This document shows, piece by piece, positions 19,596 to 32,098 of a DNA stretch of 64,000 bases. The stretch covers positions 736,001-800,000 of the forward strand of contig CAXRHT010000002.1 of assembly GCA_964230645.1 (NCBI GenBank). Reading direction: 5' to 3'. A program made the translations under genes and the position numbers. Position 1 is the first letter of the stretch. Each line of letters starts with the position of its first letter. This DNA comes from Bdellovibrionales bacterium (lineage in GTDB: Bacteria > Bdellovibrionota > Bdellovibrionia > Bdellovibrionales > JAGQZY01). The notes under the pieces were generated by a model, which made no database searches, was not told where the DNA came from, and saw only the letters and a list, made by a program, of their open reading frames with translations.

Positions 19596-20291
19596 ATGAG
19601 TTCTATTAAAATACACCGCATTACTGCTGACGATTCCTGGGAAATGATGTGGAAAGGCTGGGAGCTGGCTCGCGTGAACTATCCCCTAGCTTTGATCATT
19701 TCGATCCTCTTTTTTGTAGGTACAATCTTGGGATCTATCCCATTTGTAGGACCCCTCATTGCGGGAGTGGTTACCACTCTTGCCCCTCTTGTTTTCCTTG
19801 AGGCCAGTCGTCTTTGGGAAAATGGTGAAAAGGGTGACTTCCAGACGGTTATGAAAGTTTTTGAAAATAAAGATCGTCTAAACGCCCTCACCCCTCTTCT
19901 TTTGATTCAGTTAGTTATCTCAGCCGGCCCCGGGCTTCTAGCCATGCTGCCTTTTTTAGGCGCTGTTGTTGGACTGCTATCGCTTATAACAATACCCATT
20001 TCCATTATTGTCAGCCTCTCAATTCCAATTTTGTTTTTTAATTATCTTTATGAGGATATGGACTACAAAAGGGCCCTAAGCTGGGCTGTTGAAGGGATTG
20101 TTCAAAACTTTGTCGCTTTTATCGTTCTGGTTCTTCTCGTGTGTGTGCTTTCAGTGATCTGTCTTATTCCACTAGGGCTGGGCATTATTTTTGTGGCATT
20201 CCCTATTTACATCACCATTGGTTATCTCTGGTACCGAAGCGTATACGAAGGTCTTCAGTTTGAAAAGGACAAAGAAAAAAGTCTTATTTAA
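19596..20291 (+). CDS. Integral membrane protein of unknown function
   Basis: About 5-6 hydrophobic segments. Confidence 0.7.
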   Translation: MSSIKIHRITADDSWEMMWKGWELARVNYPLALIISILFFVGTILGSIPFVGPLIAGVVTTLAPLVFLEASRLWENGEKGDFQTVMKVFENKDRLNALTPLLLIQLVISAGPGLLAMLPFLGAVVGLLSLITIPISIIVSLSIPILFFNYLYEDMDYKRALSWAVEGIVQNFVAFIVLVLLVCVLSVICLIPLGLGIIFVAFPIYITIGYLWYRSVYEGLQFEKDKEKSLI

Positions 20292-20703
20292 ATTGTGCCA
20301 CCGCTTTGAACTCAACGGCAATCGGTGTGGGTAAAGCCCCAACTTCTACTGTGGTTCGACAGGGTCCTGACTCCACCGAAAAATATTCGGCGTAAACTTC
20401 GTTAAAAGCCTTAAAATCTTTTTTCATATTGGTAAGAAAGCACTGCACATCAACAAGGTTCTCAAGATCAAGACCTGAATCCTGTAACACAAGGCGTACG
20501 TTTTCGATCACAGCTTTCGTTTGAACTTTCACATCATAGTCCAAGACACTGCCAGCATCATCAAAAACCACTCCAGGGATTTCTTTGGTACCCTTCTGCC
20601 TCGGCCCCACACCCGAGAGGAACAAAAGGTCTCCCACTCTGCGCGCATGAGGATAACTTCCAACAGGCTCCGGCGCCTTCTGACTGATCACTTGCTCATC
20701 CAT
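20284..20703 (-). CDS. RidA family protein, probable 2-aminomuconate deaminase
   Basis: PEPVGSYPHARRVGDLLFLSG, FNEVYAEYF, PCRTTVEV, LPTPIAVEFK; AAGGAG RBS. Confidence 0.85.
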   Translation of the reverse strand: MDEQVISQKAPEPVGSYPHARRVGDLLFLSGVGPRQKGTKEIPGVVFDDAGSVLDYDVKVQTKAVIENVRLVLQDSGLDLENLVDVQCFLTNMKKDFKAFNEVYAEYFSVESGPCRTTVEVGALPTPIAVEFKAVAQFK

Positions 20704-20726
20704 AACCACTCCTTTTCGAAACCACC

Positions 20727-20867: not shown

Positions 20868-22070
20868 TTACAATGAGGACTCTGGAAGCTCCACTTCAGC
20901 GGTGATAGCATCGATGATGGGATTAAAAGGCTGGTGCCTTTGAGCTGTAGACCAATTGATTCCATCGCTAGAGATTTTTCGAGTGGATGAGGCATTCTCA
21001 CCCCAACTTCTCGAGAAGCTATAAAAAGTTCCATTTGAATAACCTTGAATGGAGTCTGACGAGTTCCCCATCGTTGTCCAGTTAAGCCCATCTGTAGAGG
21101 AATAATTTATGCGCCCGGCGCGTAAATAAAATGTGCTATTCTCTTTTGAAAAATAAATCGAACCAATACTATCAGCAAACTGGTGGCCAGTTACCCATTC
21201 CTCGGTTTGGGTATTGAAGAGCCTCAGTTGAGAATTTTCGGAACTATCGACGAAGAGAAAAATGCCGAGGCCTGCGCTGAACGTTGTCTGCACGCTTTCG
21301 CTAGTGTTAACATCCCAGTTCATGCCATCCTTACTAAAGGCAAGAGGGGCTCCGCCACTTCCTACCGCCATAAAATAACCGTTTTCAAACTCCATTCGGC
21401 GATATGCTCCATTGGGCCTTGAACCGCTAGCCCAATTTATACGTTGCCAGTTTTGACCGTCAGCACTCCAAACACTGGTTCCACCTCCCATGGAAGCAAA
21501 TACATTATTTCCGAAAGTGATATCTCCCGCCCAGGGGCAACCACCATATGTTACAGTGTCTTTATCGAGAACGATTTCATCCGTCCAATTCTCTCCATCT
21601 TTAGATGTTCTTACATTGACGTGACAACAGCCTCCAATAGCAACAAATTGATTGTTTCCAAAAGCAATCCCACGAAACATATGGGGATCATGATCGGGTG
21701 CGTAGGGTTCAAATTTTCCAAAACGGCACTGATCCTTTAAATAAGCCTCCGAATAGCTTTGCCCCGGAATCAATTGCTGCTCGATATGTTTGAGGGTTTC
21801 AAAGCCATCATGACTGGTCATAATGGCTCCCCCTCGTCCCACACCCACTGAAACACTTTGTTTTTTCAAAGGTGATGGTTGATCTGGAAGAGGTTCATCC
21901 TCTTCATTATCTAAATTGGTTTCATCATTTTGATTGGAAGACTCGCTGCCTTGTTGAGCGCCCAACTCAGCCTGAAAAGGAGTAGGACTGCACCCTTGAT
22001 AGATAAAAATAATACCTAGAAGAAGAACAAGAAAAATATTGATGCTTTTTGAATTTAAACTCAAGACCAC
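20868..22070 (-). CDS. Lipoprotein with BNR/Asp-box-like beta-propeller repeats
   Basis: IYQGC lipobox; repeated S.DG.NW and IAFGNN.FVA. Confidence 0.7.
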   Translation of the reverse strand: MVLSLNSKSINIFLVLLLGIIFIYQGCSPTPFQAELGAQQGSESSNQNDETNLDNEEDEPLPDQPSPLKKQSVSVGVGRGGAIMTSHDGFETLKHIEQQLIPGQSYSEAYLKDQCRFGKFEPYAPDHDPHMFRGIAFGNNQFVAIGGCCHVNVRTSKDGENWTDEIVLDKDTVTYGGCPWAGDITFGNNVFASMGGGTSVWSADGQNWQRINWASGSRPNGAYRRMEFENGYFMAVGSGGAPLAFSKDGMNWDVNTSESVQTTFSAGLGIFLFVDSSENSQLRLFNTQTEEWVTGHQFADSIGSIYFSKENSTFYLRAGRINYSSTDGLNWTTMGNSSDSIQGYSNGTFYSFSRSWGENASSTRKISSDGINWSTAQRHQPFNPIIDAITAEVELPESSL

Positions 22071-22226: not shown

Positions 22227-23303
22227 TCACCAGTTATGGTTCTGATAATCGAAATACCAACGATCATGATCAGGGTCCCATTCATCCCAAGTGGGAACCT
22301 CTTCAATTTTGCTCACAAGGTTTTCCGGAACAATACCTGGAACAACGAAAGCTTTCTGTCTTTTTAGGGGATAAGGATTTCGCAGCTCCATTCCTAAAAC
22401 TCCAAGGATGGATCTTGCCACATACCAGGTGGCTTGTGGATTCCAACCATGGGCAATTTTAATAACCACACCAAGGCCTTTAGGATACTCAGGATGTTCG
22501 ATGGCCATTCCCAAAAGTCCATCGGCTCCCTCTTTAGCGATCACCTTTCCTTTACAAGATTTAATCACTGTTGTGTCGAGGCGATTAAAGCCACCAATCA
22601 GATCGGGCTCTTTAGTAAAGGCCTCCCAAATCCAGTCCTCATCTTTCTTCTGAGCGAGCTTAGCGTAACACTGAGCCAATTCATTCACGGTCATTGCCAC
22701 TGTAGGCAGACCATCCCCGTCTCTCGCTACCCTTGGTGGCTCATAATCTTCCCCTAAATAATCTCTGACAATTTCAAGGTAAGCCTTGAAAATGGGGTGA
22801 TTGGGGAGAGTGTAGCCGGCCCGGTTCCAACCTTTTAAACGGCAACCTTTTAAAATGGCGGCGTGATGTCCCGAAGAATTATTGTACCATCTTCGAGGTC
22901 GACGCACCTGTCTTCCAAATTGCACAAGAGGAAGATCGAGAGGTGTGAGCATGAGTCCCCACTCCCCTTCACTTAATAAACTTTGAGCCGCTTCCACATG
23001 TTGAGCCGTGCCGTTGTGGCTAGCCAGCGCAATAGCCTTTTGTTTCCAATCGGTGACCTCAGACAATTCATCGGCAAAGACTTTTATATAAAAAGGCTTC
23101 ATCATGGAGCGCCCATAGCAAAGGACATTTCCGCCCCAGGCGTGTATTTTTTCATCGCCACTGTACCAAGATACCGCTCCGTGAATAGTGTTTTCACTCA
23201 CACCATTTCGCCTAAAATCGACAAGAGGTTCCCACTCCACATCGCGTCCTGTGGGCAAGTTGGATTCTTTTTCACCTAAGGGACTGGAAGGATAGACTTT
23301 CAT
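22227..23303 (-). CDS. Class 3 (Rhizobium-type, asparaginase II) amidohydrolase homologue
   Basis: RSMMKP, ASHNG, NNSSGHH, DGDG, KEGADG; ATGA overlap with upstream gene. Confidence 0.8.
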   Translation of the reverse strand: MKVYPSSPLGEKESNLPTGRDVEWEPLVDFRRNGVSENTIHGAVSWYSGDEKIHAWGGNVLCYGRSMMKPFYIKVFADELSEVTDWKQKAIALASHNGTAQHVEAAQSLLSEGEWGLMLTPLDLPLVQFGRQVRRPRRWYNNSSGHHAAILKGCRLKGWNRAGYTLPNHPIFKAYLEIVRDYLGEDYEPPRVARDGDGLPTVAMTVNELAQCYAKLAQKKDEDWIWEAFTKEPDLIGGFNRLDTTVIKSCKGKVIAKEGADGLLGMAIEHPEYPKGLGVVIKIAHGWNPQATWYVARSILGVLGMELRNPYPLKRQKAFVVPGIVPENLVSKIEEVPTWDEWDPDHDRWYFDYQNHNW

Positions 23304-24271
23304 AGGGACTCATCCTCAAGGGGTTCATCTTCTGATGAGAGAACATTACGATCTCCCGGAAAGAAATCCACATTGTCTTCATCAAACTCCAGATCAGGAG
23401 CAGGATGCGAAGTCGGAGTTAGACCTACAACAGCGGCTCCTGTTCCTTGAATAGGTTGATACTCAAAGATCTCTCCTTTATAGGCATTGGTCTCTCCCAT
23501 CACAGAAGCCAGCCACCAAAAGGGCTTAAAGTTTACCACTTTTTTCGTCACTCTCGCTTCTCTATGAAATTGCCTTGAAAGCTGTGACACATCCTCTAAG
23601 CGTCCGCGGGACAAAAACTCAAGAAACTTTTGATTCCACTCTTCATCTTTTTTTGATGAGATTTCATCAGGACACTCTTTGGGGTCCTTTAATGTGTAAC
23701 GGTTAGATAAACTACTGATCGAAATCACCACCGCTTTTTTGTTTTGTTTTTTAAGGGCGTCTTTGGCCCCTTTGCCTAGAATAATTTGCTCGGCGCGGTC
23801 CGAATAGATGTTGCTCGAAACAATGCAGGATTTAAATTTATTTTTAGGATCGAGAAGTTTTAAACAAACCACAGAGCCTGTATCAATAGGAAAACCCTCG
23901 TAGGCCGTAAGCCTTGAGGTGAGTCCTCTTTCGATGTTGGCTTCATTATAGGCTTTGGCGAATTCCACATCGGTTTGAAATTCATAGGGAATACTGCCAA
24001 GTGAGTGCCATTCATCATCAACGAGAGTCCATTTTGGCTTAGGAAGCGCTTGAATCTGATGACCTAAAATACTGGCCCAGTAGGTTGAGTAAACAAGGAT
24101 CAAATCAGGATTTAACTCATCCACTTCTTTGGCGACTTTATCATAAGCCTGTCGGACCTTTTTCCAACTGCTTCTCTCATCAGGCTTTAATAACGGGTGA
24201 GGTAAACCGGGAAGCACATAACCCTTCAAAACATTTTCGCAGTGACTGCTGGTGTATTCTGCTTTTTCCAT
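23300..24271 (-). CDS. amnA: 2-aminophenol 1,6-dioxygenase alpha subunit-like (LigB family)
   Basis: VLPGLPHPLLKP, PDLILVYSTYW, GFPIDTG, GTGAAVV; acidic C-terminal extension. Confidence 0.75.
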   Translation of the reverse strand: MEKAEYTSSHCENVLKGYVLPGLPHPLLKPDERSSWKKVRQAYDKVAKEVDELNPDLILVYSTYWASILGHQIQALPKPKWTLVDDEWHSLGSIPYEFQTDVEFAKAYNEANIERGLTSRLTAYEGFPIDTGSVVCLKLLDPKNKFKSCIVSSNIYSDRAEQIILGKGAKDALKKQNKKAVVISISSLSNRYTLKDPKECPDEISSKKDEEWNQKFLEFLSRGRLEDVSQLSRQFHREARVTKKVVNFKPFWWLASVMGETNAYKGEIFEYQPIQGTGAAVVGLTPTSHPAPDLEFDEDNVDFFPGDRNVLSSEDEPLEDESL

Positions 24272-25155
24272 CACTTAGCCCTCCACTCAGCGACCACATT
24301 ACCGGTACCAATCACGGTGCCATAGCCATGAATTTTCGCCGGTGCTTGAGGCATGCCCATAGCCGAGAGCATCCACATCAGCCCTCCGGCATCACACTCA
24401 CTAATGGTTTGTTCAGTAAAGTCAGTCATCACCTCAAAGATTGTCTGCACATCTCCTTTTTTCATAAGATCAATCATCTTCATGTCCCATAGATATTGAC
24501 CATGATGGTAAATATGCTCGGCACTCATGTCCTCTGGAACATCAGGCTCTGTAATAAAATGGCGATGAGACAGGGAGTGACTGGCAAGAAGAAGGCATTT
24601 CTTACCAGACTCCTCAATGGCTTTTTTTGTGGCCTCGCCGAGTTTAAGCATTTCCTCTTGCATCACGTCCATAGAAAAATAAGAAGCTCTTCCAACACTG
24701 GAAATGCCGACAATGGGTTTATCCCAAGAGGGATTTGTCATTTGCAAGGCTGTAATCGTTCCGTAGTCGATTCTGAAATCGGGATTTCTCATCATCTCTA
24801 CAAGCATTTCATTGTTCTTAGCTTCTTGATAAATCTTTTCAGCCAAATCGACGTCGACTTTTAAATCGTAATTAAAGCGAAACAAATGAGGAAAGATAGG
24901 GTCCACTGATTTCGATTTAAATTCAGGACACCCCAGAAAGTGCGTGGCAATTTGGGTTCTCCAATGAGGGGAGTGGACCAATATCACATCGTAATCCACA
25001 TCACTTAAAGAATCTCTTAATCTCTCATAGGCCCATCTCAAAGTTTCCCAGCCACACTCTGAGCGAGGCTCGTTCTGAGGGGGGTTCTCTCCATAGACAA
25101 GATGGGGAGGATGGGGCGCTAAACATCCAGCAACAATTTGACCTTTTTGACTCAT
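24271..25155 (-). CDS. amnB: 2-aminophenol 1,6-dioxygenase beta (catalytic) subunit-like
   Basis: APHPPHLVYGENPPQNEPRS..GWE, HSPHW, SHSLSHRH, YGTVIGTGN. Confidence 0.88.
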   Translation of the reverse strand: MSQKGQIVAGCLAPHPPHLVYGENPPQNEPRSECGWETLRWAYERLRDSLSDVDYDVILVHSPHWRTQIATHFLGCPEFKSKSVDPIFPHLFRFNYDLKVDVDLAEKIYQEAKNNEMLVEMMRNPDFRIDYGTITALQMTNPSWDKPIVGISSVGRASYFSMDVMQEEMLKLGEATKKAIEESGKKCLLLASHSLSHRHFITEPDVPEDMSAEHIYHHGQYLWDMKMIDLMKKGDVQTIFEVMTDFTEQTISECDAGGLMWMLSAMGMPQAPAKIHGYGTVIGTGNVVAEWRAK

Positions 25156-25427
25156 AGTCTGGCAATATAAGAGTTGAAGAGGAGCTTGTCTAGCCTCCAT
25201 TTCTATTGTTCATTATCTATTGCCCCTGTGATTTCAATCCTTTAGCAGGAAGACCCCTTTCATATCTGAGGCAAGACTTCCCTACGTGCTTAAATCCAGA
25301 GGGCTTCCCCTATTCTATTTGATATTGTCGATTTTTTTCTCGATTGGACTTTTTGCCCCACTCAAATCCAAGAAAATGGCTTTTCTCCCTATTCCCTCTT
25401 GTTTCGCCCAAGCTCGTACCCTCAAAC

Positions 25428-25484: not shown

Positions 25485-26144
25485 ATGGAAAAGTCCAAGC
25501 TAATCTTTATATTAGGATTTTCTTCTCTATTAATGAGTTGCTCTGGAGGGTCCGACTCTAGCAACACACTCGATTCACAACTGATTTCGTCTGATGTCGC
25601 CTACGCTTCTTGGCCCAACAGCACCACCACAAAAACAAACTCCATTCAGATCACTTCCCCTGTTCTTCTTTCTGACATGAACAAAGACGGAGTACTGGAA
25701 AACATTTTCATTACAGTTTTACCAAACTCCACTCAACCGGAAAATAGTGTTCTGCGCGTAACAAGTGGTGAGGCCTATGATGAAATCGTAAACTACGATG
25801 CCAACAGGACTCCCCTTTTTCAAAATTCTTATCCCTTCGTCTACGACGTCAATGATGATGGTGATAAGGAGCTTCTCCTAGTTGGATACGATCTTGATAA
25901 AGTTTACTGCTTTGACTTTAAAGACAATGAGCTGGACCAAATTTATATCCGCTGGTCGGCTCGCCTCCCTCAGGCTCTCCCCTCTGGTTTTGATCCTCGA
26001 ATGAAGCTTATTGAAAAAGACGAGCAGATCATGATTCAAATTGAAAACTATGGGATTTTTGAGAAAAAACACAGAAAACCCAAAGTTGTTTTTATTAATC
26101 CTCCCGGTAAAGACCAAGAGGATGATGACGACGACGATGACTGA
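25485..26144 (+). CDS. Lipoprotein with FG-GAP-like Ca-binding motifs and poly-Asp tail
   Basis: LMSC lipobox; DMNKDG and DVNDDGDKE. Confidence 0.7.
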   Translation: MEKSKLIFILGFSSLLMSCSGGSDSSNTLDSQLISSDVAYASWPNSTTTKTNSIQITSPVLLSDMNKDGVLENIFITVLPNSTQPENSVLRVTSGEAYDEIVNYDANRTPLFQNSYPFVYDVNDDGDKELLLVGYDLDKVYCFDFKDNELDQIYIRWSARLPQALPSGFDPRMKLIEKDEQIMIQIENYGIFEKKHRKPKVVFINPPGKDQEDDDDDDD

Positions 26145-26365: not shown

Positions 26366-28372
26366 ATGAACCTACCAAAAATTAATGATCAATTTGAGCA
26401 TTATAAAATCCTCTCTACTTTGGGAGAAGGAGCCATGGGACAGGTCTTCCTTGCTGAGGACCTCAAGTTAGGAAGAAAAGTCGCCTTAAAGTTCTCCGGT
26501 ACAGACAAACAGAAATCGAATCCCGTTTTATTAAAACGCTTTGAAAACGAAGCTAGAACTTTAGCCGCTCTCAATCATCCAAATATCGTCAACGTCTTCG
26601 ACTTCGGCCATTGCGGTGATTTACGTTATTTGGCTATGGAATACGTACAGGGTGACACCCTGATGCGGATCATTCAGAAAAAAGCCTTTGGTATAAAAGA
26701 CAGTTTAGAAACCATTAGACAAGTCGCCAGTGGTGTTGGGGCGTCTCACCAAAAAGGTGTTCTTCACCGGGATATTAAACCAGCTAATATCCTTATAGAC
26801 GAAAATAAAAAAGTAAAACTCGTGGACTTCGGCATTGCAAAGTCCTTGCAGTCCGAAGATGGCAATCTGACCCAGGCCGATCACTTCATTGGAACTATTA
26901 ATTACATCGCTCCTGAGATATTAACCGGTCACCCTCCCTCTCCCTGCTCAGATATATTTTCCATAGGAGTTGTTTTTTACGAATTGGTCACAGGACTTCA
27001 TCCATTCACTGGAGAAAATAAGTTTGAAACCATGGAAAAGGTAAAATTTCAGGAAATCACTTTCCCCCCAGATATGGAATCTCTCCTTCCTGAGTCTCTA
27101 AAGGGACTCATTATGAAAATGCTTTCCAAAGATAAAACGAAGCGCTTTCAGTGCACAGATGATCTTATCAAATCTATTGATAAAAGCTTTGAACACCTAC
27201 ATCCTGATTTGCATCAAATCTCGATTCGCCCCGACATCATTGTACTTAATCGCTCGGAATTGCGTCTGCAATTACTAAAACAAGGTTATCAAGAAAATGA
27301 AATTCGACTGATCATTCATCAAGCCGCACAGCTCGAGGATATGGGGCAAGTGTTCGGCCCCGATGAGGGTGATCAAACACTTGATACGTCGAATATGAGC
27401 TTGAAAAACAAGATCACCATAAGTCCGATGAACCTCAAAGCATCTATAACTAGCTTTGAAAACTCGAAAACACAAATCTCAAAATCCACCGCCACAGTGG
27501 TAACAAAGACCAAAACCAAACCAGAAAACAATAAACAAACACAAAAGCCCACGGCCCAAAACCTCTATCCCAATGACACTGATCAAGAAGAAATTCCCTA
27601 TCCACTTTACAAGCCCAACTTTTTTAAAAAGGCCTTTGTCTTCCTCGGGTTCATTACCCTATTAGGCAGTGGAATCTATAATTACAAATCTAAGACGGTT
27701 TTCTACAAAAAAGCCCTCGAGTACTCTTCCATTTTTCTAGAACAAAAAGGAGAAACAGAAGAAAAGGTAGTCGTCGATACTAAACAAAGAGAAATATCCT
27801 CCCTACCGTCCGTGTATATGGACTCTCCTCCCGCTGGCTCACAGTTTACTTTTCGTCATGTTAAAACAAGTGGTGATGAACGTAAAACAGACCTTGATGT
27901 GCAAAAATTGCTAAAAATCAAAAGAAGTGCTAACGGGGTCATCTCTCTTAATATCAAAAATCTCAGTACCGGCAAATGGAGTCAAGCTCGATGGTCGGAG
28001 AATGTGATTGCACCTCCACTGAGGTATTATGAAAAAAATGGTCGCAATGAAAAGACGACCCTTCCTCCGAACCATAAATCTATCTATCCGCTCAATATCG
28101 GACGCAAAGGTCAATTTCGCTATCAGATTGTCAATACCGATGGAAGCTTCTCTCAAGGAGAGAAAAACTGTGAGGTTTCTGGCCATATGGAAAAAGTCGT
28201 TCTCGGTAAGGCCCGATCGATATTGGTTATCCAATGTCAGAACACAGTCGATGGAATAAAGCGGGACACAAGCATCCACTATGCACCCGATCTTAAGATA
28301 AGCGTCAAAAGAGAGTCCCACTGGAAACAAGGGGTAACGCCTCATTACGAGCTGTGGGAACTGGTTAAATAA
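26366..28372 (+). CDS. Hanks-type Ser/Thr protein kinase with TM and C-terminal extracytoplasmic domain
   Basis: LGEGAMGQV, VALK, HRDIKPAN, DFG, GTINYIAPE; TM near residues 423-438. Confidence 0.93.
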   Translation: MNLPKINDQFEHYKILSTLGEGAMGQVFLAEDLKLGRKVALKFSGTDKQKSNPVLLKRFENEARTLAALNHPNIVNVFDFGHCGDLRYLAMEYVQGDTLMRIIQKKAFGIKDSLETIRQVASGVGASHQKGVLHRDIKPANILIDENKKVKLVDFGIAKSLQSEDGNLTQADHFIGTINYIAPEILTGHPPSPCSDIFSIGVVFYELVTGLHPFTGENKFETMEKVKFQEITFPPDMESLLPESLKGLIMKMLSKDKTKRFQCTDDLIKSIDKSFEHLHPDLHQISIRPDIIVLNRSELRLQLLKQGYQENEIRLIIHQAAQLEDMGQVFGPDEGDQTLDTSNMSLKNKITISPMNLKASITSFENSKTQISKSTATVVTKTKTKPENNKQTQKPTAQNLYPNDTDQEEIPYPLYKPNFFKKAFVFLGFITLLGSGIYNYKSKTVFYKKALEYSSIFLEQKGETEEKVVVDTKQREISSLPSVYMDSPPAGSQFTFRHVKTSGDERKTDLDVQKLLKIKRSANGVISLNIKNLSTGKWSQARWSENVIAPPLRYYEKNGRNEKTTLPPNHKSIYPLNIGRKGQFRYQIVNTDGSFSQGEKNCEVSGHMEKVVLGKARSILVIQCQNTVDGIKRDTSIHYAPDLKISVKRESHWKQGVTPHYELWELVK

Positions 28373-28389
28373 AGAACGAATAAATAGAA

Positions 28390-29838
28390 TTAAAGCTCGT
28401 AGTTCATACTCACGTTTTGAGTCTCTGTGAAAAACTCTAGGGAGTAATCCCCGCCTTCTCGACCGACACCGGATTGCTTCATACCACCAAGGGGAGTCCT
28501 TAAATTTCGGTACATCCAAGTATTCACCCACACGGTCCCGGCCTGAATTTTCTTCGACAAACGGTGAACCCGTGAGTGATCATTGGTCCAAAGAGTGGCC
28601 GAGAGTCCATAGGGGACACTATTGGCCATTTCTAGAACTTCGTCCTCGCTTTTGAAAGAAGTGAGAGTGACAACGGGACCAAAAATTTCTTCGTTCTGTA
28701 CACGGCAGTCTTGGCTCAAACCAGAGAGGACTGTCGGACGCATAAAATAGCCGTCTTTCATTTCACTAGGCAGGTTCTTCACTTCCTGACTGGTGTGAAC
28801 CACTCCGCCTTCTTTTCTCGCAAGCTCAACATAACTTTGAACTTTTTCCAGATGCTCTTTTGAAACCAAGGCCCCTAAGAAGTTGCTGTCATCGGATGGA
28901 TCTCCAACCTTGAGCTTCTCGGCTTCAACGACGAGATCTTTTAAAAACTGGTCATAAATCTCTTCTTGTATAAAAATGCGAGACCCACAGAGACATATTT
29001 CTCCTTGGTTCAGGAAGCTTGATCGCAAGGTTGTTTTTAGGGCCTTTTTGTAATCGCAGTCAGAAAAAATAATATTGGGATTCTTTCCGCCCAGCTCAAA
29101 ACTCGTTTTCTTAAAGTCTCCCGCTACGCTCTTTGCAATGTGGGCCCCTGTTTTGGTTCCGCCGGTGAATGAAATTACCGGCACATCCGGGTGTTCTATG
29201 AGTGCTTGTCCTGTCTGTGTTCCTAATCCATGGACAATATTGATCACACCCGGTGGAAGACCGGCTTCAATGGTTAATTTTCCGAACAGGTAGGCTGTCA
29301 TCGGTGTTAGTTCCGAAGGTTTACAGACGGCAGTGTTTCCAGCCGCGATACAGGGAGCAATCTTCCAGGTGAGTAAATAAAGAGGAAGATTCCAGGGGGA
29401 GATCAAAGCACAAGGCCCATAGGGGATATGATTGACGTATTCGACTTTCCCCTTCTCATCGGTGAAAGCTGTCGATTTAAAACTTTGAATAGCATGGGCA
29501 AAAAATCGTAAATTTTGACTGGCCCGTGGTATGTCTACTTTCTTAGTCAGCCAAAGAGGCTTTCCCTGATCTAAGCTTTCAGCTTGGGCGAGTTGTTCAA
29601 AGTTTTGATCAATCAAATCGGCTAAACGCATAAGGGCCGCGGCTCGATCTCCGGGCGAAAAATCAGACCAAATACCAAAGGCTTGCTTAGCAGCACCCAC
29701 AGCTCTATTGACATCTTCGGAGTCGGAGTTGGGGGTTTGGCTATAAACTTGACCCGTTGCAGGCGTGAAATTATCAAGGTAATTTCCACCCACGGGATCA
29801 ACAAACTCTCCACCAATCAAATTTTTGATTTTCTCCAT
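28390..29838 (-). CDS. 2-aminomuconate 6-semialdehyde dehydrogenase-like ALDH (ALDH8/AmnC type)
   Basis: ISPWNLPLYLLTWKIAP, ELGGKNP, NQGEICLCGSR, EEIFGPV; TAATG overlap with LLM gene. Confidence 0.88.
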   Translation of the reverse strand: MEKIKNLIGGEFVDPVGGNYLDNFTPATGQVYSQTPNSDSEDVNRAVGAAKQAFGIWSDFSPGDRAAALMRLADLIDQNFEQLAQAESLDQGKPLWLTKKVDIPRASQNLRFFAHAIQSFKSTAFTDEKGKVEYVNHIPYGPCALISPWNLPLYLLTWKIAPCIAAGNTAVCKPSELTPMTAYLFGKLTIEAGLPPGVINIVHGLGTQTGQALIEHPDVPVISFTGGTKTGAHIAKSVAGDFKKTSFELGGKNPNIIFSDCDYKKALKTTLRSSFLNQGEICLCGSRIFIQEEIYDQFLKDLVVEAEKLKVGDPSDDSNFLGALVSKEHLEKVQSYVELARKEGGVVHTSQEVKNLPSEMKDGYFMRPTVLSGLSQDCRVQNEEIFGPVVTLTSFKSEDEVLEMANSVPYGLSATLWTNDHSRVHRLSKKIQAGTVWVNTWMYRNLRTPLGGMKQSGVGREGGDYSLEFFTETQNVSMNYEL

Positions 29839-31064
29839 TACGCGTCCTTTATATGAGGAGCCACTTTTTCCATAAACGTTCTCATATTTTGGCAAACCTC
29901 TGGGCTATTGTGATTGTTAAAATCAAACCAAAGCATCAAACGATCTTCTGGATGAAATCTTTCTTTAATTTGTTCGATGATCGTTTCGGGATGACCGACC
30001 AAGGCATTATCTACTGCCTTTGCTAACTTCACAGGATCGATCGTTCCCTGTATGGCTGACCAGTAGGCTTTGTTAGCATCGGTGGCAAGCTCAGTGGCTC
30101 GCTTATCGTTTTCTTCTTTTGAGAGCTTGGGATCGTCACTTGGAAAAACTAATACAGTTCTAGGCATATGAGATCTTTTCCACTCGCCTTTGTAGGTCTT
30201 CTTCATGCGCTCATGGGTTTTCTCAATCACTTCTGGAGGAGTGATGGAAAGATTAAAAACTCCACAGGGTAAGAATTGATTGGCCCACTCGTGCGCTTCG
30301 GCCCAGTGTGCCCCTATGGTTAGGTTCAAATACTCTAAAGGCGCTTCAAAGGGAATCACACCCACTTTTTCAAAATCCCAAAAAGAGGGAAGTTCAATTT
30401 TTTCGGGCTCGCCCGTTGTATTATTTTCTTTGTTGTAGGCTTCAACAACCTTTTGCCAGTCTTCCTCTGTGCGGAAAAATTCCTTTTTAAGATACATAGG
30501 TGCGATGTCTTTGGAAGAAAACACTTCACTTTTAAGAAAACGTAAAAAGATCTCTGTGGCTTGTAAAAAAGCTCGGCCGTTTACTACGGGCCAACCCACT
30601 TTTTCCACTTCAGAGCGAGGCTTGATCCCATAAGGTCGATTGGAAAAAGGAAAACGTCCAGCAGCAAAACCTAATTCAAGCTTTCGATCGGTATTGTGGT
30701 GAAGAGCATGAAGACTCAAAAAGGTCTTTACAGCTTCAGCATGGGCAATGGGACCACCGTTACAAAGAATATTTCTAATGGCAGAGCCAACATTTATTTG
30801 CTTCGTTTGTGAGAAGAGAAGATGCGCGACCTGCAAGACATCTGTGTTAAGCCCAATTTCTCCTTTGAAATTGGGAATAACGGCCCCTGGGTTTTCTTTT
30901 TGAACCTGGCAGGAAAGGTGAGTTTCAGCCACCCAAGCGGTTTGAAACCCAAGTTCATCCGCAAGTTTGGCCTGCTCAAAAAAGTTTTTGAGCATTGTCT
31001 TTTCATTGGGTTTATGGCCCTTCACTTCATTTTGGCATATGGATAAAAATATATCGAGAGTCAT
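29838..31064 (-). CDS. Luciferase-like (LLM) flavin-dependent monooxygenase
   Basis: AKLADELGFQTAWVAETH, INVGSAI, LELGFAAG, ALVGHPE. Confidence 0.82.
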   Translation of the reverse strand: MTLDIFLSICQNEVKGHKPNEKTMLKNFFEQAKLADELGFQTAWVAETHLSCQVQKENPGAVIPNFKGEIGLNTDVLQVAHLLFSQTKQINVGSAIRNILCNGGPIAHAEAVKTFLSLHALHHNTDRKLELGFAAGRFPFSNRPYGIKPRSEVEKVGWPVVNGRAFLQATEIFLRFLKSEVFSSKDIAPMYLKKEFFRTEEDWQKVVEAYNKENNTTGEPEKIELPSFWDFEKVGVIPFEAPLEYLNLTIGAHWAEAHEWANQFLPCGVFNLSITPPEVIEKTHERMKKTYKGEWKRSHMPRTVLVFPSDDPKLSKEENDKRATELATDANKAYWSAIQGTIDPVKLAKAVDNALVGHPETIIEQIKERFHPEDRLMLWFDFNNHNSPEVCQNMRTFMEKVAPHIKDA

Positions 31065-31825
31065 ATCGCCCCCACTCTTCCACCGTCCACAGCAATGCTT
31101 TGGCCGGTAATATAATTGGCTTTTTCGGAACAAATAAATCGAATGAGGTCGGCTGTTTCTTCAGGCTGGGCAAAGCGTTTCATCGGCACTTTACTCATCC
31201 ACTCCCTTTCTACATCGGCGTAACTTTTATTCTCTTGGTCGGCCTTGGCCCGAATCAGGGACTCCAGCCTCGGAGTTTGAGTGAAACCAGGCATCACATT
31301 GTTGACTGTAATCCCGTGAGGGGCGAGCTCCAAAGATAAGGTTTTTCCCCAACTCGCAACAGCGGCTCTGACAGTGTTCGATACTCCCAAGTGAGGGATC
31401 GGGATCTTTACAGAAGTTGATGTGATAGTCACAAAGCGACCCCAGTTTTTCTTTTTCATTTCATCGAGAACAATTCTTGTAATCATCGAATTTGCAATGA
31501 GGTGATTATTCATGCCACCCAAAAATTCCTCAGGCATGGCTTTTGAGATAGGGCCACCTTTGGGCCCTCCTGAATTGAGAATCACAATATTGAAGGGAGC
31601 CTTTTCATGCTCGGCCCCAATGGCTCCCTGCCAGGTTTCCGACCTTCCAATATCACCAGCAAGATAATTATGCCCTCGACCTGGAAGATCACTCACTATT
31701 TTTTTTAGCTTGTCCTCACTGCGAGAGAATAGGCAGACACTGACACCATCACTAGCCAAACCTTTTGCGACCGCTTCACCGATCCCCTGTGAAGCGCCTA
31801 GCACCAAAGCTCGTTTGTTTTCCAT
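31061..31825 (-). CDS. SDR oxidoreductase
   Basis: GASQGIG, NSGGP, SN..RAAV, ITVNNVMPG, GQSIAVDGG; ATGA overlap with LLM gene. Confidence 0.92.
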   Translation of the reverse strand: MENKRALVLGASQGIGEAVAKGLASDGVSVCLFSRSEDKLKKIVSDLPGRGHNYLAGDIGRSETWQGAIGAEHEKAPFNIVILNSGGPKGGPISKAMPEEFLGGMNNHLIANSMITRIVLDEMKKKNWGRFVTITSTSVKIPIPHLGVSNTVRAAVASWGKTLSLELAPHGITVNNVMPGFTQTPRLESLIRAKADQENKSYADVEREWMSKVPMKRFAQPEETADLIRFICSEKANYITGQSIAVDGGRVGAI

Positions 31826-32098
31826 GGACCCACCCTCTCGTAAAATATTATGGTTCTGAGCGTGCCCTGTAGGTAACAAAAGCTTGGAAAAAGATCAATA
31901 ATTCCGATAATTTCAGCCTGCTCTTTAAGCCTTCTCCCCCATTTTTCGTGATTCATTAATAATCAGTCTGCTTTTGATCCGCCTTGCAATCATCAAAAAA
32001 CTGTCTCATTCCAAGACATTAGAGCCTTCAAAGCGACGAAAAACTAGAGGTTTAGGGCCAAAGTCGATAAAATAAAAGGAACAGTATTCGGGGGGATA

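Follow-up and report, generated by a model that had tools for sequence, protein, structure and literature searches.

An asparaginase-fold hydrolase with exchanged zinc ligands and its predicted place in an alternative route of tryptophan breakdown

Introduction

The locus described here raises the question of what a hydrolase of the class 3 asparaginase fold does among genes for 2-aminophenol breakdown, and what it means that all three of its zinc ligands have been exchanged. The gene, called X below, lies in a stretch of 64,000 nucleotides from a Bdellovibrionales bacterium (the window). A first-pass annotation had read the exchange as a re-engineered metal site that confers a new amidohydrolase or formamidase specificity, rather than as decay.

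Results

Family, fold and active site of X

The PF06089 profile matches X with 161.8 bits, above its curated cut-off of 25. Among solved structures, X can be aligned by sequence only to ReAIV and ReAV, class 3 asparaginases of Rhizobium, which account for 14 distinct sequences (best E value 1e-16) and are 21–25% identical to it. The AlphaFold2 model of X, a single chain that carries no metal geometry, has a mean pLDDT of 82.8, with residues 120–143 (Ser143 included) below 50. Superposed on ReAV, the model reveals a ReAV-like fold with a Z score of 30.2 and an rmsd of about 3 Å over about 290 residues, compared to a Z score of 14 for glutaminases, and Foldseek matches it to the class 3 asparaginase fold with an E value of 1e-16 and a TM score of 0.66. 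Neither the KynB-type cyclase family (PF04199/TIGR03035) nor the KynU model TIGR01814 matches X, and no NCBIfam family is assigned to it at all; any replacement of kynureninase by X would thus be one of function only.

Alignment to ReAIV (8cly) and ReAV places NNSSGHH of X opposite NNCSGKH, and RDGDGLP opposite TDGCSIP or TDGCNLP. Alignment and codons agree with the first-pass annotation that the zinc ligands Cys135/Lys138/Cys189 have become Ser143/His146/Asp197 and that the motifs RSMMKP, SHNG and KEGADG are kept, with S66/K69, S95 and K257 verified at the codon level (Table 1). The codons are CGC for R65, TCC for S66, AAG for K69, AGC for S95, TCT for S143, CAT for H146, CAC for H147, GAC for D195, GAT for D197 and AAA for K257. 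X would work in the manner of a class 3 asparaginase, but as the Cys/Lys/Cys zinc site of the ReAV type is not found in it, we class it as a variant within PF06089 rather than among the ReAV-type asparaginases.

X has in common with ReAV and ReAIV of Rhizobium etli (7os3, 8cly, 9g66) the fold (Z about 30), two Ser-Lys tandems (S66/K69 and S95/K257), the equivalents of Arg47, Asp187, His139 and Tyr156 (R65, D195, H147 and Y164) and the oxyanion-hole alanine (A260). In the alignment, these residues, which in ReAV bind and cut the aspartyl group, are all retained, as are the equivalents of the Arg47 network, R32/E37/D261. Their roles in ReAV are as given in excerpts of PMC12292245 and PMC12951835. 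Cross-subunit salt bridges at Arg47 are a feature of the ReAV homodimer, and E37 and D261 are conserved in the X subfamily. Unlike the Rhizobium enzymes, X has Ser/His/Asp for Cys/Lys/Cys, a glutamate at the Leu264 position, an Arg-rich loop, a Trp/Asp-rich tail and an operon of kynurenine and aminophenol genes. The tail, already noticed in the first pass, is real: TWDEWDPDHDRWY covers residues 338–350 and is conserved in homologues. The position after the second-tandem lysine, Glu258 in X, faces the leaving group in beta-lactamases. As a speculation, Glu258 may bind aminophenol, and the Arg-rich loop and the tail may form a lid.

Table 1 Features of X and of the surrounding operon, in window coordinates
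Feature	Position	Strand	Remarks
X: class-3 asparaginase-fold hydrolase, PF06089, Ser/His/Asp variant	22227..23303	minus	358 aa, ATG start
R65-S66-M-M-K69: alpha-carboxylate-binding Arg, nucleophile Ser, general-base Lys (ReAV R47/S48/K51)	23097..23111	minus	alignment and codons; roles from an excerpt of PMC12292245
S95-H-N-G: second-tandem Ser (ReAV S80)	23010..23021	minus	alignment and codons
Arg-rich loop LVQFGRQVRRPRRW (126–139)	22887..22928	minus	near-invariant in close homologues; low model confidence
N142-S143-S-G-H146-H147: Ser and His in place of ReAV Zn ligands C135 and K138	22863..22880	minus	alignment and codons
D195-G-D197: ReAV D187 retained; Asp in place of Zn ligand C189	22713..22721	minus	alignment and codons
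K257-E258-G-A260-D-G: second-tandem Lys, subfamily marker Glu258, oxyanion-hole Ala	22518..22535	minus	Glu in 58/60 subfamily rows vs 1/32 canonical
Trp/Asp-rich tail TWDEWDPDHDRWY (338–350)	22254..22292	minus	beyond the ReAV-alignable region; missing from shorter subfamily members
RidA family, predicted 2-aminomuconate deaminase	20284..20709	minus	common to canonical kynurenine cluster of relatives, 55–60% identity
amnA-like: 2-aminophenol 1,6-dioxygenase alpha subunit, LigB family	23300..24274	minus	overlaps X by 4 bp
amnB-like: 2-aminophenol 1,6-dioxygenase beta subunit	24271..25200	minus	E 4e-106 to 3vsg_B
ALDH, 2-hydroxy/aminomuconate semialdehyde dehydrogenase-like	28390..29895	minus	best NCBIfam TIGR03216, below cut-off; common to canonical cluster
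LLM: luciferase-like monooxygenase, predicted kynurenine Baeyer-Villiger monooxygenase	29838..31133	minus	in 48/48 genomes with X
SDR: short-chain reductase	31061..31879	minus	32% identical SDR in canonical cluster

The operon around X

X is coupled to amnA, as the first-pass annotation had it, through a 4-bp overlap (ATGA at 23300–23303). The order SDR-LLM-ALDH-amnB-amnA-X-RidA recurs across 80 genome loci, the best 80 of 321, and an amnA-like gene lies directly upstream of X in 70 of 78 scored ORFs, a set that contains the one in the window; ORF calling missed X in 3 of the 80 loci (L011, L026 and L052). The module for meta-cleavage of 2-aminophenol is present here, with genes for AmnB, AmnA, the semialdehyde dehydrogenase and the deaminase. 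AmnB matches the solved 2-aminophenol 1,6-dioxygenases with E values of 1e-101 to 1e-106; of the 62 rows aligned, at least 95% keep its residues H30, H79, Y146, H212 and E268. The model of an LLM orthologue (from L009; pLDDT 91.6) is a luciferase-like barrel that matches luciferase, RslO1 and 3,6-DKCMO. The luciferase-fold enzymes that match by structure catalyse many kinds of reaction and are 10–17% identical to LLM, and sequence searches against solved structures gave weak matches only. No flavin reductase was recognised in the operon, and one PF01613 gene lies elsewhere in the genome. A scan for promoters and terminators stayed at chance level (19 vs 19.5 and 13 vs 13.8).

In some loci TDO and KynB are added to X (L066, L102 and L105), one of them being the LLM-X-KynB-TDO cassette of G043 (L102). 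X is fused to a KynB-like cyclase domain in four representatives (P0128, P0231, P0243 and P0254; 43–51% identity to the KynB queries), three of which, P0231, P0243 and P0254, form a more distant branch with altered motifs. In loci with a cysteine-bearing X, the gene adjoins LLM and not amnA.

The window operon is broken up where most relatives have it contiguous, by three genes: at 20868–22070 one for a 400-aa protein without matches in Pfam or NCBIfam, at 25485–26144 one for a 219-aa protein that Pfam does not match, and at 26366–28372, in opposite orientation, one for a Ser/Thr kinase. The Bdellovibrionia loci with Cys/Lys/Cys (L107, L105 and L220–L222) have an amnA-like ORF of about 480–520 aa, longer than usual and possibly with a fused deaminase domain. 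The record titles of L038 (Enterobacteriaceae) and L076 (Streptomyces griseus) seem at odds with the surrounding gene content, and these labels may be wrong.

Distribution of X and of the canonical kynurenine pathway

The genome that contains the window is 99.6% complete and has TDO and a KynB-like gene (G000 C1; 216 bits, cut-off 223). Queries for KynU, 3-HAO, KMO, ACMSD and an oxalocrotonate decarboxylase-like protein found no match in it; the positive control of the 3-HAO model was silent in this search, and the same model matched 29 relatives. The query ORFs for KMO, ACMSD and oxalocrotonate decarboxylase carry provisional labels, based on their position beside KynU; NCBIfam gives a VioC-like match only for the KMO query and none for the ACMSD query. 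Since the decarboxylase-like query is unmatched, SDR may act on the product of the deaminase and reduce it towards 2-oxoadipate; alternatively, it might be a source of reduced flavin. X is the sole PF06089-like gene of this genome, which also has a short gene of the class-1 asparaginase family (G000:C1:411667-412185, a 178-aa frame).

The distribution profile covers 161 genomes from the class, all with a completeness of 90% or more and many of them incomplete assemblies. The X subfamily occurs in 48, of which 46 have it at 57% identity or more (one as a fragment) and the others are G043 and G050. LLM is found in 49 genomes, AmnB in 45 and TDO in 139, and KynU, 3-HAO and the KMO-like gene in 29 each, the same 29. 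All 48 X genomes have TDO and LLM. None has KynU, although about 10 such genomes would be expected among the 139 with TDO; the Fisher p value of 1e-6 for this exclusion is overstated, as the genomes are related. Both states occur inside each of four families (f1, f2, f3 and f8), and 62 of the 139 TDO genomes have neither route. Nor was KynU found in 50 further X genomes, searched from among the 80 locus genomes.

Canonical clusters of relatives have the same ALDH (51–53% identity), RidA (55–60%) and KynB, and an SDR, around KMO/KynU/HAAO/ACMSD; the 32% identical SDR lies at L126:10376-11113. Because X and KynU exclude each other in the 161 genomes, and ALDH, RidA, KynB and an SDR are shared, we read KMO, KynU, 3-HAO and ACMSD as one set and LLM, X and AmnBA as its alternative. 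We conclude with high confidence that X belongs to an alternative route of tryptophan breakdown.

Three genomes with TDO, KynB, LLM and X gave no match to a LigB-family dioxygenase: G019 (one contig, 99% complete), G043 and G050. They imply that X likely acts before ring cleavage, with a dependence on LLM rather than on the opening of the ring. Of 81 genomes in the archaeal order of G161, 80 have X and one, G199, has KynU; G199 also has SDR-LLM-X-ALDH genes (L218:5089-6330). A TDO-LLM-KynB cassette occurs in G061 (L125:7291-10169), where no X-subfamily gene was found, only a canonical Cys/Lys/Cys asparaginase elsewhere. In genus g12 (L109, L111 and L121), all 31 genomes have TDO and neither KynU nor LLM; 30 of them have a weak X match, and the three that were read are canonical Cys/Lys/Cys asparaginases. 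Canonical Cys/Lys/Cys paralogues separate from X occur in G126, G071 and G072.

Conservation and history of the exchanged site

All of the best 120 of 1670 homologues (75–100% identity) have S143 and D197, and 119 have H146. On this conservation, Ser/His/Asp in X is neither chance nor decay, which bears out the first-pass annotation: far from being unique to this sequence, the exchange is nearly fixed in the 120 homologues. All six serine codons occur at position 143 among the homologues. The 80 matches classified (one locus counted twice) comprise 76 TCN and 4 AGY codons, which gives no separation of origins.

A tree that extends to canonical enzymes was built from 92 full-length homologues with the motif columns retained, 5 of 97 rows having been left out as partial or duplicate. 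Positions 143 and 197 in these rows are Ser and Asp in 17, Cys and Cys in 75 and mixed in none. Position 146 is Lys in 62, His in 16, Glu in 9, Asn in 3 and Gln in 2, and in the 75 Cys and Cys rows it is Lys in 62, Glu in 9, Asn in 2 and Gln in 2. The cysteine pair is thus the distinctive change, as the lysine position varies even where both cysteines are kept. Of the 17 Ser/Asp representatives, 16 have His146, and Asn142 accompanies Ser143 in every one. The X subfamily, marked by Glu258, makes up 60 of the 92 rows, 43 of which keep both cysteines. For ReAV orthologues, an excerpt of PMC11024299 gives 99% conservation of both cysteines and 97% of Lys138.

Metagenomes were queried with an alignment of 23 divergent X-subfamily members, 20 of them cysteine-bearing. 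The best 80 of 504 confirmed loci, at 43–72% identity to X, have Cys/Glu/Cys in 70 and Cys/Lys/Cys in 10. Cys/Glu/Cys represents a third form of the zinc site, seen in these 70 loci (of L132–L211) and in all seven archaeal X genes read (L212–L219).

In trees of 28 rows built without the motif columns (19 of 47 rows left out as long branches or near-duplicates), close orthologues with cysteines are nested within the Ser/Asp rows, which amounts to two changes, and a topology with one change occurs in 0% of 200 bootstrap trees. A single Ser/Asp clade is not rejected by the AU test (p 0.46). We regard the following picture as doubtful when taken as a whole: the cysteine pair would have been lost once and then regained in a lineage that includes the archaea, zinc-anchored (Cys/Lys/Cys and Cys/Glu/Cys) and metal-free (Ser/His/Asp) forms would exist side by side in nature, and the route through LLM and X would operate in 80 of the 81 genomes of the archaeal order and in many predatory bacteria.

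Discussion

Kynurenine is an aspartate whose side-chain carbonyl bears a 2-aminophenyl group. In the route that we propose, TDO and KynB would form kynurenine by known reactions, and their genes are present. LLM would then insert an oxygen between ring and carbonyl in a Baeyer-Villiger or Dakin reaction. The product would be the 2-aminophenyl ester of aspartate, and an O-to-N shift would turn it into N4-(2-hydroxyphenyl)-asparagine. X would cut the ester or the anilide through a beta-aspartyl-Ser66 intermediate, in the way that ReAV acts on asparagine, and AmnBA, ALDH and RidA, as their homology suggests, would carry 2-aminophenol to 2-aminomuconate and on. In a variant, LLM would already oxidise N-formylkynurenine. 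The net effect would be that LLM, X and AmnBA replace KMO, KynU, 3-HAO and ACMSD with no need for a kynureninase; the carbon balance of the route holds because aspartate equals alanine plus CO2.

That X releases aspartate is a prediction that we consider probable. To the complete reading, in which X is a beta-aspartyl hydrolase that frees L-aspartate and 2-aminophenol from kynurenine oxidised by LLM in the Baeyer-Villiger manner, we give a probability of about 55%. The conservation of Arg65, the alpha-carboxylate binder, implies an amino-acid acyl group, and the analogy with ReAV suggests that an asparaginase fold with intact aspartyl-binding and Ser-Lys apparatus would be the expected recruit for aspartate release. 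We infer the Baeyer-Villiger chemistry from the pathway gap only, as LLM is without a close solved relative. Also counting against the reading are G199 with both X and KynU, G061 with LLM but only a canonical asparaginase, the 62 TDO genomes that have neither route, and the operon in which no flavin reductase gene was recognised. Baeyer-Villiger oxidation of aminoacetophenone with an acyl shift is the chemistry assumed for the oxygen insertion and the O-to-N shift, and our literature search found no usable paper on it. In excerpts of the respective papers, a Baeyer-Villiger reaction of an LLM is shown on progesterone (PMC12239570), and an LLM with an adjacent hydrolase is proposed for anthraquinone, an aryl ketone (PMC9836352).

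Several other readings of X have to be weighed against this one. LLM could hydroxylate kynurenine at position 3, and X could then break a carbon-carbon bond of 3-hydroxykynurenine by hydrolysis, giving aspartate and 2-aminophenol directly. The net products would be identical, all co-occurrence data would fit, X would function without AmnBA too, and the subfamily-specific Glu258 could protonate the ring. However, aryl-carbonyl cleavage requires a strongly activated ring, and the active site of X is an unmodified Ser-Lys amidase set; we consider this version unlikely. A scheme in which AmnBA opens the ring of 3-hydroxykynurenine made by LLM, and X then removes the aspartyl group in a retro-Claisen reaction to leave 2-aminomuconate semialdehyde, is very improbable in view of G019, G043 and G050, which have X and LLM with no LigB-family match, of the closeness of AmnB to solved 2-aminophenol dioxygenases and of the neighbourhood of X to LLM in the cysteine-bearing loci. 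It would account for the translational coupling to amnA in the window and for the 70 of 78 ORFs with amnA directly upstream, and its carbon-carbon hydrolysis would be chemically easy, as in meta-cleavage product hydrolases.

The first-pass reading itself, a rebuilt metal site that makes X an amidohydrolase or formamidase for formyl or acetyl anilides, draws on the perfect coupling of positions 143 and 197, on the co-variation of Asn142 and on His and Asp as plausible ligands. Against it stand the kept Arg65, the non-catalytic zinc of ReAV (excerpt of PMC12951835) and the cysteine-bearing orthologues with the same operon. A formamidase role would moreover be redundant, as the genome has its own KynB and cysteine-bearing relatives of X are fused to a kynurenine formamidase. 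The chance that this reading holds is very small, and its formamidase part is not supported in view of the KynB gene and the X-KynB fusions. An ordinary or decayed asparaginase that lies in the operon by coincidence is the least credible explanation: X has the Pfam profile and fold of a class 3 asparaginase and is the only PF06089-like gene of its genome, but it keeps 75–93% identity across distant lineages among the best 120 of 1670 homologues, co-occurs strictly with LLM and is fused to KynB in some representatives, the genome has a class-1 asparaginase-family gene, and some X genomes (G126, G071 and G072) have separate canonical paralogues.

For the beta-aspartyl hydrolase that we favour, the role of the exchange itself has to be considered. 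The best 80 of 504 metagenome loci, all with a cysteine-bearing X, contain LLM in 65 cases (45 of the 48 loci of at least 8 kb), ALDH in 64, Amn in 38, KynB in 8 and TDO in 3, and archaeal and some Bdellovibrionia orthologues with cysteines have the same gene set around X. The zinc of ReAV anchors the substrate only (excerpt of PMC12951835). Since Cys/Lys/Cys and Cys/Glu/Cys orthologues share the operon, and given this role of zinc, the exchange is probably not the origin of the new role. What stands of the earlier interpretation is thus a conserved variant under selection that is very likely no ordinary asparaginase; that the exchange created the specificity is not supported, given the cysteine-bearing orthologues in all 80 metagenome loci obtained with the mostly cysteine-bearing query, 65 of them with the same LLM.

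Excerpts on ReAV report near-native kinetics of the zinc-stripped enzyme and a hydrogen bond between Cys135 and Lys51 (PMC8602277), and loss of all activity in the C135A and C189A mutants (PMC11024299). Given these dead mutants, the loss of the cysteines in X must be compensated. Judging from the residues involved, the exchange likely alters how the amino-acid end is held and not which group leaves. We lean towards a putative metal-free site, in which Asp197 would pair with the alpha-ammonium group and Ser143 would keep the hydrogen bond to Lys69. It is also quite possible that Ser/His/Asp forms a putative O/N metal site, for example for a different ion held by His146/Asp197/Asp195. The pairing of His146 with Ser/Asp in 16 of 17 representatives fits a metal ligand and counts against the metal-free model. 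PDB entry 9g67 is reportedly the K138H mutant of ReAV.

The proposed route combines features of several known systems. It shares TDO, KynB, ALDH, RidA and an SDR with the canonical kynurenine pathway (TDO, KynB, KMO, KynU, 3-HAO, ACMSD, AMSDH and deaminase) and has the same predicted end product, 2-aminomuconate semialdehyde; LLM, X and AmnBA replace the unmatched KMO, KynU, 3-HAO and ACMSD, and where the canonical pathway gives alanine and CO2 the predicted co-product is aspartate. AmnBA, the semialdehyde dehydrogenase and the RidA-type deaminase are those of 2-aminophenol meta-cleavage, as in amn/cnb clusters and the ARO microcompartment (PMC10470539, in the part available, where the word asparaginase is absent). 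Unlike that pathway, the route would be fed from tryptophan by LLM and X, and the oxalocrotonate decarboxylase-like query is unmatched in the genome. Type II Baeyer-Villiger pairs of an LLM and a hydrolase (diketocamphane monooxygenases; sphantq_4473/4474 of Sphingobium AntQ-1) likewise have a luciferase-fold monooxygenase beside a hydrolase and a proposed logic of ketone to ester to hydrolysis. They differ in that the window LLM is about 14% identical to 3,6-DKCMO, its proposed substrate is an amino-acid aryl ketone, and X has the asparaginase/beta-lactamase fold. No description of a tryptophan route through LLM and X was found in the literature searched, a search with subscription journals largely outside its scope; in the part of PMC12624862 that was available, the relevant terms are confined to one legend and a count of MAGs.

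If the site is metal-free, X would be the first metal-free enzyme of the class 3 asparaginase fold. In ReAV, replacing the cysteines by alanine abolishes activity and stripping the zinc does not; X offers a natural experiment on what the zinc does, and paired orthologues about 60–70% identical, with and without the cysteines, make the zinc question directly testable. AmnBA is known mainly from pollutant degraders. If the proposed route is right, AmnBA would have a natural role, two novel activities would bridge the gap between kynurenine and 2-aminophenol, and a large set of genes now named ‘asparaginase II’ would be re-annotated, among them one that is nearly universal in a marine archaeal order. 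Tryptophan would then be broken down by a luciferase-like Baeyer-Villiger enzyme and an asparaginase-fold aryl-aspartyl hydrolase, with four textbook enzymes replaced and aspartate returned.
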